Origin: Escherichia phage vB_EcoM_G2494
Sequence record: MK327935.1
Strand: one strand, 5' to 3'
Length of the DNA: 64,000 bases
Position numbers and translations under genes: made by a program. Positions 24,381 through 51,185 of this stretch are shown here, one piece after another (positions within the stretch are counted from its first letter, which is position 1; the number at the start of each line of letters is the position of its first letter). Below the pieces are notes generated by a model. That model worked only from the letters and a program-made list of their open reading frames with translations. It was not told the DNA's origin and ran no database searches.

Positions 24381-24394
24381 CACTTTTTATAAAA

Positions 24395-24562
24395 TTATTT
24401 GTTAATTTCCGGTGCGTTGCTTGGATAGTAACCTTCTTTAACACCCAGGTATTTCGCAACCATCCCTACAATCTTCTGTGCTACTACAATGTCAAATTTC
24501 AGATAATCTTCGCCGTGGGTTTCAATGATATATGCTTCACATGCTGCTTTAGTCTCGAACAT
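24395..24562 (-). CDS. small protein (55 aa), duplicate copy A
   Basis: MFETKAACEAY ...; about 89 percent identical to product of 28188-28355. Confidence 0.55.
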   Translation of the reverse strand: MFETKAACEAYIIETHGEDYLKFDIVVAQKIVGMVAKYLGVKEGYYPSNAPEINK

Positions 24563-24595
24563 TTTGATTCTCCTATTTCGTTTCGTTATGTGTGT

Positions 24596-24625
24596 ATTAT
24601 AGGGGATCTCCCGATCCCCGTCAAC
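24596..24625 (-). promoter_or_regulatory. early promoter (TTGACG-18-TATAAT) with palindromic spacer GGGGATCGGGAGATCCCC
   Basis: Read on minus strand. Confidence 0.55.
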
Positions 24626-24637
24626 AACTTTTTAAAA

Positions 24638-25111
24638 TTATTTGCACCAAATTCGAATGATTTCGTCTCGTTCAAATTTTTGCCAGATTACTCGGTCGCC
24701 CGCTGCCATAATCCTGACAAATCCAGTTATATTTCCGGTGTACTTGCTTTTAGTTTCTGCATCATATTCAAAGAATGGAGCTTTAAGATCGCTAAACTCA
24801 TCTTTTCCCACAAACTTCATAACATGACGGTGTGCGTAATATTCGCTTCTTAGTGTTGTTGTGATAGTTCCGTCATCATTTGATTTCAGATGCAATTCGG
24901 CATCTTCATAAAGACTTGCATCTCGTTGTTTACTTTCGATACCATCATTATATGTTGATTTGGTTGCACTCCAACATTGATATGTCTTATCTACATTTTC
25001 GATCTTTTCCTGTGTCATGTCAAAAAGCGGCGCAACCTTTTTCTTAGCCGCGTGCGCAACGTTGGTCATAGACAGTGCCGCAACAACCGCAATAGCAATA
25101 ATTTTCTTCAT
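24638..25111 (-). CDS. secreted/periplasmic protein with signal peptide (157 aa)
   Basis: MKKIIAIAVVAALSMTNVAHA signal peptide; AAAGGAG SD. Confidence 0.6.
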   Translation of the reverse strand: MKKIIAIAVVAALSMTNVAHAAKKKVAPLFDMTQEKIENVDKTYQCWSATKSTYNDGIESKQRDASLYEDAELHLKSNDDGTITTTLRSEYYAHRHVMKFVGKDEFSDLKAPFFEYDAETKSKYTGNITGFVRIMAAGDRVIWQKFERDEIIRIWCK

Positions 25112-25920: not shown

Positions 25921-26229
25921 TCATTTAGACAAATAATCATTCTGTGCAATCCGGTCGGCGTATGCTGGTGTTATGTCAATCGCCAGCACTTTAACGCGTG
26001 CTTTCTTGCGACCTGGGTTTTCTCGTAACCAGTGCTCATGACCGTGAACATTTTTATACTGCGATGCTTCTTCGAAGGTACGGATCGGACCTGGGTAATC
26101 AGCGTAAAGGATCTCTAGATCTTCGGTGATGTAAAAATATACATCGTAATTGCTGTTCTCTAGCTTAAGCAGAGACTTTCGGAACATTGGGAGATTTTCG
26201 CGGGTAAATTCAAAGATATTATCTTTCAT
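25921..26229 (-). CDS. HxHxW-motif paralog family member A (102 aa)
   Basis: YFYITEDLEILY ... HGHEHW ... VLAIDI shared with six neighbours. Confidence 0.55.
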   Translation of the reverse strand: MKDNIFEFTRENLPMFRKSLLKLENSNYDVYFYITEDLEILYADYPGPIRTFEEASQYKNVHGHEHWLRENPGRKKARVKVLAIDITPAYADRIAQNDYLSK

Positions 26230-26648: not shown

Positions 26649-26927
26649 TTATAAAATAATTTTTTGATATTTTTCTATGATGTTTGTGTAGGTCACATCA
26701 ACCGCGAGCACCGTTGCTTCGAATCCACCGTTTAGCCAATGGCTATGATCGTGATCGTTAAAGAAACCGAGGCCAGTGCGAAGACCTTCTTTATATTCGG
26801 CGCGTACATTCAGTTTGTCGTCGATAAACAGATAAAACCATGAATTTTTACTAGGATTGATGATACAACCTTTCAGATTAGGGAGAATATCACGACTAAG
26901 AATAAACTTATCACCTACTTTGAACAT
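26649..26927 (-). CDS. HxHxW-motif paralog family member B
   Basis: HDHSHW ... VLAVDV; ATG at 26927 with GAGGA SD (ORF-track start 26942 is GTG). Confidence 0.5.
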   Translation of the reverse strand: MFKVGDKFILSRDILPNLKGCIINPSKNSWFYLFIDDKLNVRAEYKEGLRTGLGFFNDHDHSHWLNGGFEATVLAVDVTYTNIIEKYQKIIL

Positions 26928-26931
26928 AATA

Positions 26932-27252
26932 TTAGTCCTCACTTATAAGGTCAAACCAATTGTTTTTCGCATAATGCTTAATGCGTGCTTGATCTGCTTC
27001 CGCTGGTGATAGATTCCATGCGATCACTACAACTTCTGACGCATCGTCATCCGTTTCTGATATCCAATGATTGTGATTCATACAGTTATTTGCTATCGCG
27101 TGAGCAAATGATCTCATTACTGGAGACGTATAATCATAGTAACGGATTTTCAGATTTTCATCAACGTACAAATAGATCGTATAAGGTTTATATTCAGTAA
27201 CCAGTAACAGACAGTTACGCAATTCTGGGAAAATCTTTTTAGTTAATTTCAT
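26932..27252 (-). CDS. HxHxW-motif paralog family member C (106 aa)
   Basis: YLYVDENLKIRY ... NHNHW ... VVVIAW. Confidence 0.5.
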   Translation of the reverse strand: MKLTKKIFPELRNCLLLVTEYKPYTIYLYVDENLKIRYYDYTSPVMRSFAHAIANNCMNHNHWISETDDDASEVVVIAWNLSPAEADQARIKHYAKNNWFDLISED

Positions 27253-27454
27253 AGTCTATTTCTCCGTAATACACGGTAATCCATTTTTCTTCATACTTTG
27301 TATCTTTCCAACACACAATCCCGTTTACTGTGCAATCTTTGGAATTGACGAATGATTCATATTGTTCTGCGTCTTCCATCATTGCATGAGCGGTCTTTTC
27401 ATCGAATATATCGCAGATCGCTTTATATGCTCAATAATCTTTAAATTTGCTCAT
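27239..27454 (-). pseudogene. paralog of 27457-27666 with in-frame TGA at codon 8 (27431-27433)
   Basis: Identical first 7 codons (MSKFKDY), then TGA, then 63 further open codons; no alternative start with SD. Confidence 0.45.
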
Positions 27455-27456
27455 AA

Positions 27457-27666
27457 TTAAGACCACTCAAGAGTTTTTGAAAACACATCTATCCATTGTT
27501 GAGTATATGCGGTTTCTTTCCATGATACAATACCAGTAGAATAATGGTTTTTGTTTCCAGAAAAGGACGGGCATTTTGATGCGTCTTCCATCATCTTTTC
27601 GGCGAACTCTGGTTCGTATACTCGCAAGATCTGTTGATATGCTTTGTAGTCTTTAAATTTGCTCAT
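27457..27666 (-). CDS. hypothetical protein (69 aa)
   Basis: ATG start; intact paralog of 27239-27454. Confidence 0.5.
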   Translation of the reverse strand: MSKFKDYKAYQQILRVYEPEFAEKMMEDASKCPSFSGNKNHYSTGIVSWKETAYTQQWIDVFSKTLEWS

Positions 27667-27931
27667 AATCGTTAACTACCTTATCAGCTTCTTTTATTGT
27701 TTTTACATCAACTGCGATAACCCGTAAAGGTTCGTCATGGTTCCACCAATGATCGTGAATATCGGCTTGTGATTTATCACCAAAGGAATCACGAATATCA
27801 TTTTTACATTTATAGCTAATGTGACCTTCATAGTCAACATAAAGGTAATTATCGAAAATCGGCGTTTTTAAGATCATACCGAAAAATCTTTCTTTGTGTG
27901 TCTTATCCAGTGTTGCAGTAATTCGCATCAT
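27653..27931 (-). CDS. HxHxW-motif paralog family member D (92 aa)
   Basis: YLYVDYEGHISY ... HDHWW ... VIAVDV; AAGAGGAA SD. Confidence 0.5.
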   Translation of the reverse strand: MMRITATLDKTHKERFFGMILKTPIFDNYLYVDYEGHISYKCKNDIRDSFGDKSQADIHDHWWNHDEPLRVIAVDVKTIKEADKVVNDYEQI

Positions 27932-28155: not shown

Positions 28156-28184
28156 ATCTTACTACTCCCTTTAATCATTGTCAA
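28156..28184 (-). promoter_or_regulatory. putative early promoter (TTGACA-17-TAAGAT) with stem-loop
   Basis: GGGAGTAGTAAGATACTCCC hairpin overlaps the -10. Confidence 0.4.
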
Positions 28185-28187
28185 CGA

Positions 28188-28355
28188 TTATTTGTTAATT
28201 TCCGGTGCGTTGCTTGGATAGTAGCCTTCTTTAACACCCAGATATTTTGCAACCATTCCGGTGATCTTCTGTGCTACTACGATATCGAATTTCAGGTAGT
28301 CTTCACCGTGGTTTGCTACAATGTATGCTTCGCATTCTGCTTTAGTCTGGAACAT
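28188..28355 (-). CDS. small protein (55 aa), duplicate copy B
   Basis: MFQTKAECEAY ...; ATG behind AGGAGAATCAAAA; ORF-track N-terminal extension is the promoter region. Confidence 0.55.
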   Translation of the reverse strand: MFQTKAECEAYIVANHGEDYLKFDIVVAQKITGMVAKYLGVKEGYYPSNAPEINK

Positions 28356-28389
28356 TTTTGATTCTCCTATATCTCGTTGGTATGTGTGT

Positions 28390-28418
28390 AGTATAGGGGA
28401 TCGGTGATCCCCTGTCAA
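28390..28418 (-). promoter_or_regulatory. early promoter TTGACA-17-TATACT with palindromic spacer GGGGATCACCGATCCCC
   Basis: Read on minus strand. Confidence 0.6.
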
Positions 28419-28428
28419 CAACTTTTTT

Positions 28429-28737
28429 TTATTCTTCATCTTCATCATTATCTTTATATGCGTACTTCATAAATTTGTCTGCTACTTCGTCCGCGTTTTC
28501 AGGTTCTACGTCTGACGCTAGGACAACAGCTAGTTCGGTTTTGTCGTTTCCATCATACCAATGATTATGAGTGTCGTTTTCTTCGATATAAAACGAATCA
28601 GTTGGAGTTGTGCGACAATATACGTCTAAATTCCCATCGATATAAAAGATCCAATCCGAATACAAAATGATTGTTTTAGCAAGATTTTTATTGTCTCTCA
28701 CAAAAGGTTCTGAGACAAATAGCTTAGTTTGTTCCAT
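28429..28737 (-). CDS. HxHxW-motif paralog family member E (acidic C-terminus)
   Basis: DWIFYIDGNLDVY ... THNHW ... LAVVLA; ATG at 28737 with GAGGA SD (ORF-track start is GTG). Confidence 0.5.
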   Translation of the reverse strand: MEQTKLFVSEPFVRDNKNLAKTIILYSDWIFYIDGNLDVYCRTTPTDSFYIEENDTHNHWYDGNDKTELAVVLASDVEPENADEVADKFMKYAYKDNDEDEE

Positions 28738-28753
28738 AACATTTTCCTCAAAA

Positions 28754-28945
28754 TTATACAGCTTCGTAAACTTCCCAATGTCCAGCGCCAACACGCTTAA
28801 CGAAAAGGTTTTCTTTGATGTTATTCATAAACGTCTGGATGGATTTAATGCGGTTTGAAGGTTTCCAGTCTTCGTTGGAATTGCGTCGATACATCATAAC
28901 ATTACCAGTTCGCTTATATTCAGCAACCATTTTAAGACCATACAT
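28754..28945 (-). CDS. hypothetical protein (63 aa)
   Basis: ATG start downstream of promoter 28994-29022. Confidence 0.45.
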   Translation of the reverse strand: MYGLKMVAEYKRTGNVMMYRRNSNEDWKPSNRIKSIQTFMNNIKENLFVKRVGAGHWEVYEAV

Positions 28946-28993: not shown

Positions 28994-29022
28994 ATACTAC
29001 ATTACGCAAAATGGCGTGTCAA
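28994..29022 (-). promoter_or_regulatory. early promoter TTGACA-17-TAGTAT embedded in 3' end of upstream gene
   Basis: Read on minus strand; followed by GGGAG ... CTCCC hairpin. Confidence 0.45.
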
Positions 29023-29305
29023 TACTTCTTTTTGCTGTTCCGCTAAGATTCTCGATCTCTCCTGGCATAACATCAACCGCCAGAACTTCTACAACATCCT
29101 CTGATCCTAACCAGTGAGTATGACCTTTGTAGAACTTGATATCCCATTTATCGCTATCGCTAGCCCACCACACATCACCGTCTATAAAGTTGATGTAAAG
29201 CACACTACGACACATTGAATTAGTTACTTTCAATACTGCGCCTTTCATCTCTTCCACGGTATGGTCTTCCATTTTGAAGACCTCGCCTACCTTAACTTTT
29301 GCCAT
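28997..29305 (-). CDS. HxHxW-motif paralog family member F
   Basis: VLYINFIDGDVWW ... GHTHW ... VLAVDV; ATG at 29305 chosen by alignment with paralogs, weak SD. Confidence 0.45.
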   Translation of the reverse strand: MAKVKVGEVFKMEDHTVEEMKGAVLKVTNSMCRSVLYINFIDGDVWWASDSDKWDIKFYKGHTHWLGSEDVVEVLAVDVMPGEIENLSGTAKRSIDTPFCVM

Positions 29306-29306
29306 G

Positions 29307-29573
29307 TTACATGTTCCGAATATGTTTAGATGCATCTTCCAGTTCGTCGATAGTGACACTGTGAGCCAGTAAGTGTACTGGTTGTGGTTCTTCACCTTCC
29401 ATAGTATTGATCAGATGACCGTTTCCTGGGTGGAATGTATCGTTGCCGTTCCAAATAGCATACACATCATCTTCTGTTACGTAGATAATAAGTCCAATCG
29501 GTGATTCTGGTAATTGAAAAATTTTACCCACTGCATCTTTGCGATTGTCTACGATATCTTTGACTGTCTTCAT
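29307..29573 (-). CDS. divergent member G of HxHxW paralog family (88 aa)
   Basis: LIIYVTEDDVYAIW ... HPGNGH ... VHLLAHSV; AGAGAGG SD. Confidence 0.45.
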   Translation of the reverse strand: MKTVKDIVDNRKDAVGKIFQLPESPIGLIIYVTEDDVYAIWNGNDTFHPGNGHLINTMEGEEPQPVHLLAHSVTIDELEDASKHIRNM

Positions 29574-30230: not shown

Positions 30231-30323
30231 CAACTTTTTTGAATTATTTTTTCATGAGCTTAATGGCTTCTTCCATAGCCAGCACATTTCGATAGTTAGG
30301 GTATCGTGTTAGATCGTCATACA

Positions 30324-30355
30324 TTCGCTTAAGGGTGGATTCGCTTAAGGGTGGA
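30324..30355. repeat. perfect 16-bp tandem duplication (ttcgcttaagggtgga x2)
   Basis: Direct reading; sits at the 3' end of CDS 30329-30589 and shifts its frame. Confidence 0.9.
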
Positions 30356-30589
30356 AACTTCCTCAAACTCTGGGTTTTCTAGATACAGTTGAACAAATTG
30401 TTTCTCTACCATCTCGGCTTTTAGCTTGTCTGCTTGTTCCTGTTCATATGATTTAGTTGGACCCAACACCAACAAAATGATAAAGGTGATCAACGATAGG
30501 AGAACATAACCGATAACGCTACGGTTTAAACGGCTTGCGTACATGCCTACCAGGAAAACAAAAAGGATATAGATAAACAGAAAGAACAT
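30329..30589 (-). CDS. small membrane protein, C-terminally truncated by 16-bp duplication
   Basis: Two hydrophobic helices; without the duplication the frame would run 25 codons further and stop at about 30244-30246, directly at the next promoter UP element. Confidence 0.5.
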   Translation of the reverse strand: MFFLFIYILFVFLVGMYASRLNRSVIGYVLLSLITFIILLVLGPTKSYEQEQADKLKAEMVEKQFVQLYLENPEFEEVSTLKRIHP

Positions 30590-44771: not shown

Positions 44772-45992
44772 TTATACTGCCATTTGAGCGGTGATCGCTG
44801 GATGGCTTTGATAGTTGTGAATTTTAAAGTCTTTCGGAGTCTTTGTCAATACCTCATCTAAAGATTTAAATTCCGGCAACTCAATTGTTGGTTTATCAAA
44901 CGGAACACGGCTTAACTGTTCCATAACTTGATCAAAGTGGTTTTTGTAAATGTGAGTATCTCCACCAGAGAAAATCAGTTCTCCTACCTCAAGATCACAC
45001 ATTTTCGCTATGATGTGAGTTAACAGCGCATAGCTGGCAACATTAAAGGGCAAGCCCAAAAAGCTGTCTACGCTTCGCTGAAACCACATACAAGACAGTT
45101 TACCTTCATTGACGTAGAATTGCACGAAAGGATGACATACACCTAATACAGCATTATGTGTTCCTTGTACGTTCCATGAGTCAATAATGATCCGGCGATC
45201 CGTTGGATTATTTTTAATTTGTTCAATCACGTTTTGTAACTGGTCTTCCCAAATCTTCGGGCGATAGACATATTCTTCATCGTCTTTAGGGCTTGATGTG
45301 TCTACATCCATACTAACAAAGATCGTGGTATCAGGTGCTAAAATGTCACCGCCCAGATATTCATTATCAAACAGATAACCGAAATAACCATCATCTACCC
45401 ATTCCTGGAATCCCCACAAGCAATATGCATCATTAACAAAATTAGATTGAGTCTTCCAGTGATCTGCTACCAGAATATAATCAAACTCTTCATAACGCAT
45501 ACCACGCCAGATAGCACATAAACGGTCTTCTGTTTCATTGGTTGGCGTAAAGTCTTCTACCCACGGGTGTTTAAATGTATGTGTATATTTGCTCTTAACG
45601 CGCTTAATTTTGATTTCACCGTGTGGATGAATCGGTTTGCGTCGCCATGCCATACCATACATATTGCCGACATTATAACCATTGAATCGCAAAGGATTCT
45701 TTTCTTTCATATCAAGACAGTTGCCGCGCCAAATGTCGAAGGCTTCTTCGTCAAACTTACCGCGTGTAATTTCCTGTAAGCGACGGCGGTCAAGTGATCC
45801 CTCCATAAACCATAGCAATTCACCAATTACAGAGGCTGTAGCCATCTTTTTAGTGGTCAGTAAGGGGAAACCCTTGCTTAAGTCAATTCGCATTTCTGCA
45901 CCGAATTTAGAGAGCGTACCTATCCCCGTTCGGTCTTCACGAGGCCAGCCATTATCAAGAACATCACGCAACAGTTTCAAATATTCTTTCAT
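44772..45992 (-). CDS. td: thymidylate synthase with about 115-residue internal insertion
   Basis: ThyA motifs (DRTGIGT, LGVCHPFVQFY, DRRIIIDSWNV, C-terminal AITAQMAV) but 406 aa versus 264-286 aa typical; insert between WRR and DQLQNVIEQIK. Confidence 0.85.
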   Translation of the reverse strand: MKEYLKLLRDVLDNGWPREDRTGIGTLSKFGAEMRIDLSKGFPLLTTKKMATASVIGELLWFMEGSLDRRRLQEITRGKFDEEAFDIWRGNCLDMKEKNPLRFNGYNVGNMYGMAWRRKPIHPHGEIKIKRVKSKYTHTFKHPWVEDFTPTNETEDRLCAIWRGMRYEEFDYILVADHWKTQSNFVNDAYCLWGFQEWVDDGYFGYLFDNEYLGGDILAPDTTIFVSMDVDTSSPKDDEEYVYRPKIWEDQLQNVIEQIKNNPTDRRIIIDSWNVQGTHNAVLGVCHPFVQFYVNEGKLSCMWFQRSVDSFLGLPFNVASYALLTHIIAKMCDLEVGELIFSGGDTHIYKNHFDQVMEQLSRVPFDKPTIELPEFKSLDEVLTKTPKDFKIHNYQSHPAITAQMAV

Positions 45993-46232
45993 CCCACATC
46001 ACCTTTTTCTTATTGATTGCTTTCTTACGCAGTTTTGCTACTGTCTCGTCAATATCGATAAAGACAACGCCACGGTCGAATACAGTAGCAGGTCTTGAGA
46101 TATCGCTATTTTCTTGCACAGGAAGCCATGATGCGCTCGCTTCATCATAGAGATATTATAAACCGTAATAATCTACGGCTACTGCGTAGTTTTCACTGGT
46201 AGCCGTCCATAATTGAATAATACCGACTTTCA

Positions 46233-46325
46233 TTATTGTTCCCGTCCGCAATGTAAGCACCGACTACCAGCAAACATTAAAGATTCACCACAATGTTTGC
46301 ACTCATAATCTGTCAGAATTTTCAT
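46233..46325 (-). CDS. tiny zinc-ribbon-like ORF (30 aa)
   Basis: CKHCG ... CLHCG; ATG 1 nt after frd stop; hand-called. Confidence 0.3.
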   Translation of the reverse strand: MKILTDYECKHCGESLMFAGSRCLHCGREQ

Positions 46326-50589: not shown

Positions 50590-50982
50590 TTAACCCTCTT
50601 TCGTCATTAATTGAAAACCACGTTCAGCTTTTGAGATTTCGCTAGGACTTAAATCGTCACCCACATATTCTAGCATCATTTCTCGGATAATGTCAAGTGC
50701 TTTTTCATCACCTGATTTTAACTCGAACTCAAGTTCATAGTGAGCATCTCCCATGACTTCGCCGACTTTGCAATAATAGAAAGTGTCTTTGCACATTTCC
50801 ACTATAGCACCCTCAAGGTCAAGTGTCAATGACTTGCGGTATGTCCTTACTTGCAATAAAGGAACGATAAGGTCGGAGTTTACGCCTAGACTATCAACAT
50901 AATGATAGAAATCATCCATTGTTGAAAAAGTGATTTCTTCTCGGTTGAATAGTCCAGATTCACGATCACCTATTTTGAGCAT
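50590..50982 (-). CDS. hypothetical protein (130 aa)
   Basis: ATG at 50982 (track start TTG); accessory gene between dsbA and rnh. Confidence 0.5.
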   Translation of the reverse strand: MLKIGDRESGLFNREEITFSTMDDFYHYVDSLGVNSDLIVPLLQVRTYRKSLTLDLEGAIVEMCKDTFYYCKVGEVMGDAHYELEFELKSGDEKALDIIREMMLEYVGDDLSPSEISKAERGFQLMTKEG

Positions 50983-50984
50983 GA

Positions 50985-51185
50985 TCAATGATCTATTAAC
51001 GTCAAGTCTAGATAAATTCCTTTTCGACGCAGTGCATGATCTTCGTTATCATAATAAAATTCGTGTTTTAGTGTGTTAGCATGATCTACGATATTGTACC
51101 CGTCATACATTGCTACCCACAAATCACAGATTGTTTCGACGCCAATTTGTGAGTGTGCATAGTATTTTAATTCAAGTTCTTTCAT
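50985..51185 (-). CDS. hypothetical protein (66 aa)
   Basis: ATG start; accessory gene. Confidence 0.45.
   Translation of the reverse strand: MKELELKYYAHSQIGVETICDLWVAMYDGYNIVDHANTLKHEFYYDNEDHALRRKGIYLDLTLIDH

Follow-up and report, generated by a model that had tools for sequence, protein, structure and literature searches.

A private opal codon at position 8 of an ORF201-family gene in a Krischvirus phage is probably a recent nonsense allele

The ORF202-ORF201-ORF200 locus

The window (the 64,000-nucleotide stretch of phage DNA analysed here) comes from a Krischvirus, one of the RB49/Phi1-like T4-type coliphages, with RB49, Phi1, JSE, ECD7 and JK32 among its relatives. A 1-kb query around the interrupted gene described below matched 56 Krischvirus records at 88-98% identity, none of them identical to the query, and a 24-kb query of the window gave the same Krischvirus picture. 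When the window is compared with four relatives over 29 kb, 354 differences are private to it, and from its sequence we take the window to be a distinct natural isolate. These private substitutions have an ordinary mixed mutation spectrum, and a mutagenesis or deamination signature is rejected on that account. The locus lies in a block of small early ORFs with alt on one side and DNA ligase on the other, and its features are collected in the table. In a comparison of Phi1 and RB49 (Arbiol et al. 2010, PMC2839356), blocks of this kind were called hyperplastic regions, with many nonessential ORFans; ORF201 and ORF202 are not mentioned there.

Table. Features of the locus, of related loci and of other private lesions in the window; positions are those of the window except in the last row
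Feature	Coordinates	Strand	Basis or remark
ORF201-family gene (phrog_8471), 71 codons, opal stop at codon 8	27239..27454	minus	reading frame and profile match
TGA at codon 8	27431..27433	minus	CGA (Arg) in relatives
Intact tandem paralog, ORF202 ortholog, 69 aa	27457..27666	minus	about 45% identical to ORF201
Residual 47-codon ORF (MMEDAEQ...) from in-frame ATG25/ATG26	27239..27382	minus	no SD
Downstream ORF200 ortholog, 106 aa	26932..27252	minus	own GGAG SD, -6.6 kcal/mol
Sigma-70/early-type promoter-like site	28156..28184	minus	TTGACA, 17-nt spacer, TAAGAT; consensus match only
Two 14-nt gene overlaps	27653-27666; 27239-27252	minus	similar to each other
H-x-H-W paralogs	25921-26229; 26649-26942; 26932-27252; 27653-27931; 28429-28794; 28997-29395	minus (all)	shared motif
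Repeated module, about 240 bp	24394-24643; 28191-28426
16-bp perfect tandem duplication (TCCACCCTTAAGCGAA x2)	30324-30355 (ORFs 30589..30329, 30366..30244)	minus	private
ORF236-like gene, codon 26 CAA to TAA	46156-46158 (ORF 46233..45967)	minus	private C-to-T nonsense change
1-nt deletion, non-homopolymer, with adjacent substitution	51011/51012 (ORFs 51185..50985, 50988..50590)	minus	private
Single ORF202-type copy in relatives	L008 (JSE) 1195-1736; L009 (KMB43) 1201-1410

On the minus strand the interrupted gene reads ATG AGC AAA TTT AAA GAT TAT TGA, followed by 63 sense codons and a TAA, and its translation is MSKFKDY-stop-AYKAICDIFDEKTAHAMMEDAEQYESFVNSKDCTVNGIVCWKDTKYEEKWITVYYGEIDYEIN-stop (AYKAICD directly after the first stop, EIDYEIN at the end). 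This bears out an earlier, sequence-only reading of the locus, which had reported a TGA at codon 8 with 63 further open codons and, correctly again, an AAA at the same codon of the intact neighbour, whose protein begins MSKFKDYKAYQQ (MSKFKDYK). That reading had also described the first seven codons and the preceding 20 nt as identical in the two genes. The seven codons do agree at the protein level but not at the nucleotide level, where GAT TAT stands against GAC TAC (two synonymous differences), and the statement about the preceding 20 nt was mistaken: the upstream 30 nt are GTTTTCAAAAACTCTTGAGTGGTCTTAATT vs TAAAAGAAGCTGATAAGGTAGTTAACGATT, and the identical run is only the last 3 nt, ATT. What ORF201 and ORF202 share without a difference is a stretch of 20 nt, ATTATGAGCAAATTTAAAGA, that runs from position -3 to +17.

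Both proteins gave full-length matches to the profile of phrog_8471, a family with no assigned function (E 2e-35 for ORF201, with R restored at codon 8 for the search, and 1e-36 for ORF202), and the restored ORF201 places residues 1-68 on profile positions 3-70 of 71 (E 2.1e-35). Because both match this profile end to end, the similarity of the two proteins reflects homology and not chance. The family is small, with only 10 relatives in a profile search of 1.84 billion representatives, and it has no Pfam match; judged by its position, it would be an early accessory protein family. Within it, the interrupted gene is the ortholog of RB49/Phi1 ORF201, for which intact annotations exist (RB49p201, phi1p201, JK32_00201, FDH53_gp197). 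It shares with that gene a full-length profile match and its place between the ORF202 and ORF200 orthologs, in a gene order that is the same in JK32, Phi1, ECD7, RB49 and Sf20, and its amino-acid identity to the Phi1-type allele is 94-97%. Where they differ is codon 8, which is CGA in RB49 and Phi1 and in all others but TGA in the window.

The TAA stop of ORF202 lies 2 nt before the ATG of ORF201, whose own SD is weak (-3.6 kcal/mol), and thus ORF201 is probably translationally coupled. The end of ORF201 in turn overlaps the start of ORF200 by 14 nt, and with a GGAG of its own ORF200 would not be expected to suffer a strong polar effect. Upstream of the whole ORF204-203-202-201-200 series, the promoter-like site in the table is the nearest strong (10/12) consensus match.

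The overlap of ORF201 with ORF200 is one of two similar ones, in which ...GAT TAT GAG CAA ATT TAA lies over ATGAGCAAATTTAA and ...GAC TAT GAA ATT AAC TAA over ATGAAATTAACTAA. In both, the upstream protein ends in D-Y-E-x-x over the ATG of the next gene, an arrangement that may be a conserved junction for module exchange. Interleaved with the ORF201/202 pair are the members of a second paralog family, each about 90-130 aa long with an H-x-H-W ... VLA-x-DV motif in common; they are orthologs of RB49 ORF197, 199, 200, 203, 206 and 208 and belong to phrog_9345 and phrog_15972 (function unassigned). The repeated module of about 240 bp encodes 55-aa paralogs, the ORF191 and ORF205 orthologs, and metagenome contigs have about 85% nucleotide identity to its second site. 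This repeat is consistent with the cassette shuffling described for the region.

Codon 8 in relatives and constraint on ORF201

Aligned with the window gene, JK32, Brandy and RB49 have CGA (Arg) at codon 8. We then searched with 41-mers centred on the variant base, for which megablast seeding is possible only across that base. The TGA 41-mer had 0 matches in 50,697 phage records, while the CGA 41-mer, which served as the positive control, matched 21 phage records exactly or nearly so, and IMG/VR contained 0 contigs with TGA and 2 with CGA. All 19 retrieved locus entries with the window-type motif have CGA. Among them are 10 contigs whose encoded ORF202 protein is the same, residue for residue, as that of the window, and in 10 of 10 a CGA-bearing 71-codon gene stands alongside. 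Four of the ten, the metagenome contigs L018, L020, L022 and L024, have the window's own EIDYEIN allele, all with CGA and differing from the window at only two positions within the ORF. A base-by-base check of L024 placed these two differences at 27433 and at 27371, the latter a synonymous site. In metagenome and genome contigs, a degenerate pattern of the TGA allele brought up unrelated chance matches only, and an exact-protein look-up of the 47-aa residual ORF returned one contig, which starts just past the mutated site. The TGA allele was found nowhere else in the four collections searched.

The comparison of the orthologous position in related phages, which the sequence-only reading had proposed as a check, thus gave CGA in every relative examined. 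Because the relatives examined have CGA and a near-identical CGA allele exists, we conclude that a C-to-T change, private and phylogenetically terminal, arose on an allele that is otherwise unchanged. From CGA to TGA it takes one C-to-T transition in the coding strand, seen as G-to-A at plus-strand 27433. Very recent pseudogenisation, sequencing error and stop-codon readthrough had been offered as the three alternatives, and the first is the best supported, given the near-identical CGA allele in four contigs and TGA nowhere else.

Pairs of ORF201 orthologs have dN/dS values of 0.05-0.16, a range that takes in the deeply diverged Phi1-type and RB49-type alleles (dS about 1.8), and therefore the gene is protein-coding and under purifying selection where it is present. 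By tblastn, both paralogs are found in 53 of the 56 Krischvirus records, with at least 80% of the query covered in every case. The records without ORF201 are JSE (two records) and KMB43, which have the ORF202 copy only, with an ORF200 homolog directly after it; this state could reflect either deletion of a tandem paralog or an arrangement that predates the duplication. Frameshifted ORF201-like and ORF202-like proteins also occur in public protein sets from other sources (P0005 and P0006). With the gene absent in JSE and KMB43 and family members frameshifted elsewhere, ORF201 is dispensable and prone to decay. The sequence-only reading had held that relatives lacking this copy altogether would count against its observation; such relatives exist, and they show that the copy is dispensable without making the observation wrong.

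The same region in the same phage group is the subject of the ORFan flux described by Arbiol et al. (2010, PMC2839356), where close relatives differ by gain, loss or replacement of small early ORFans of the hyperplastic regions, as with the absence of ORF201. The losses described there are cassette (PeSL-mediated) deletions or replacements, whereas the loss in the window is a point mutation.

Readthrough and restart

UGA is the leakiest stop codon in E. coli and the frame after codon 8 is open for 63 codons, as it would be if the UGA were read through by design (as Trp or Sec) or if TGA were a sense codon in this phage. An in-frame UGA with a long open frame after it is likewise present in another coliphage, in the coat/A1 extension of the RNA phage Q-beta. 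Programmed stops of this sort, however, are conserved and lead into a functional extension, whereas the ORF201 stop is private to one genome and falls at the eighth codon of a gene that all relatives have uninterrupted; TGA is found in none of the relatives examined, all of which have CGA. A TGA-sense code is opposed by the 20 of 71 window ORFs of at least 100 aa that TGA terminates. It is also opposed by the comparison of the window with 82 complete CDSs of Sf20: the TGA of ORF201 is the only in-frame TGA seen, and among best matches a single in-frame stop was flagged, a TAA in an ORF236-like gene. A tRNA scan of the 64-kb window found no tRNA that could act as a suppressor, and RB49, phi1 and JSE have 0 tRNA genes (PMC2993671). 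A 76-nt stretch around the UGA and downstream of it has an MFE of -11.1 kcal/mol, no better than shuffled sequence (mean -11.5 kcal/mol, z = 0.17), which argues against a stimulatory structure, and no Rfam match to a known RNA element was found near the UGA at E up to 1. Stop-codon readthrough, the third of the earlier alternatives, is thus unsupported as a designed feature: the stop is unconserved, a stimulatory structure, a known RNA element and a window suppressor tRNA are all missing, and TGA is a normal terminator here. Programmed recoding of any of these kinds seems to us extremely improbable.

Leakiness of an undesigned kind is a separate matter. Background decoding of UGA via tRNA-Trp in E. 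coli runs at roughly 0.1 to a few percent, and position 8 is variable in distant family members. The opal codon might then be tolerated because the host's leakiness supplies a low dose of full-length W8 protein, and the allele would be a dosage-reducing hypomorph instead of a dead gene, although we give this only a slim chance of being the explanation.

The remaining way to a product would be a functional 47-residue protein made from ATG25/ATG26 by reinitiation after the 7-codon mini-ORF. The two ATGs lie in frame, 48 nt past the TGA, and the most conserved motif of the family (MM.DA...SF...IV.W.DT.Y..W) is downstream of them. But 48 nt is long for termination-reinitiation, and the ATG25/ATG26 start has no SD, with an anti-SD duplex of -0.9 kcal/mol vs -5.3 to -6.6 kcal/mol at neighbouring real starts, so that the earlier statement that no SD-equipped internal start is evident holds. 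In the predicted fold, a high-confidence model (pLDDT 89.7), the restart point comes after all of helix 1 (residues 8-16) and the greater part of helix 2 (residues 19-29), and no relative uses this start. A functional restart product is unlikely, as is programmed readthrough, and we would be very surprised to find one.

Mutation, miscall and meaning for the phage

The phage could instead truly have CGA, with the deposited base a sequencing or consensus error. The T at 27433 is unique to one record among all relatives, and it is one of four private gene-breaking differences within about 25 kb, which could indicate an imperfect consensus. The other three are a nonsense change, a duplication and a deletion; the window was screened for such disruptions against the 82 complete annotated Sf20 CDSs, mechanical stop-to-stop ORFs being too noisy for this use. 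In the ORF236-like gene, codon 26 is CAA in Phi1, ECD7, JK32 and Sf20, and a 41-mer with the window's T had no match in the phage collection. The 16-bp duplication, whose junction was found in no phage record, causes a frameshift relative to Sf20 in an RB49 ORF211-like membrane-protein gene. The 1-nt deletion splits a CYTH-domain ORF245-like gene into ORFs of 66 and 132 aa; the 12 best-matching records listed have the extra base, and a single CDS where annotated.

Several features of these lesions argue against error. Substitution errors are rare in high-coverage consensus sequences, no lesion site is in a homopolymer, the TGA site is outside Dam/Dcm motifs, and a 16-bp tandem duplication is of a kind that typically arises biologically. 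The core genes, at 97-100% identity to those of Sf20, are undisrupted, and the window-private differences as a whole have, as noted above, the spectrum of ordinary mutation. Of the compared coding sequence, 68% belongs to genes with assigned functions, and none of the four lesions is in it; all are in the 32% annotated as 'hypothetical protein' (p about 0.011 under random placement, a post hoc value with n=4). Such confinement is more in keeping with real mutations that selection has filtered than with consensus errors made at random. We therefore regard a miscall as unlikely, though it deserves to be taken seriously.

The locus has what is expected of a recent unitary pseudogene, namely a sense codon and an open frame in the orthologs, purifying selection, and no credible alternative start. 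We consider it probable that the TGA of ORF201 is a genuine and very recent CGA-to-TGA null or hypomorphic allele. A recent C-to-T transition would have turned Arg-8 of this ORF201-family gene into an opal stop, and translation, probably coupled to the upstream paralog, would end after seven of 71 codons. Essentially none of the small helical early protein would then be made, with a presumed loss of function; leakiness of the UGA via tRNA-Trp may allow a trace of full-length W8 protein, and the downstream ORF200 would keep its own ribosome-binding site. The allele would then be null or strongly hypomorphic, in a gene that the phage can dispense with and that lies in a hyperplastic early region.

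What we describe is an ordinary recent inactivation, or a miscall, of a dispensable ORFan, and its import beyond annotation is small. The proper annotation of the gene is as a pseudogene or a disrupted homolog of ORF201, rather than as a 47-aa ORF or a recoded gene. If the allele were a dosage-reducing hypomorph, ORF201 would be a down-tuned member of a four-helix early protein family (the four helices being those of a model) and, together with the three other lesions, would mark a lineage that is shedding or down-tuning accessory early genes. As a recent nonsense allele, and beside the absence of the gene from JSE and KMB43, it is one more data point that plaque growth does not require ORF201. 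Should the base be confirmed, this phage would be a naturally occurring knockout, suited to comparison with near-isogenic relatives for an ORF201/202 phenotype.
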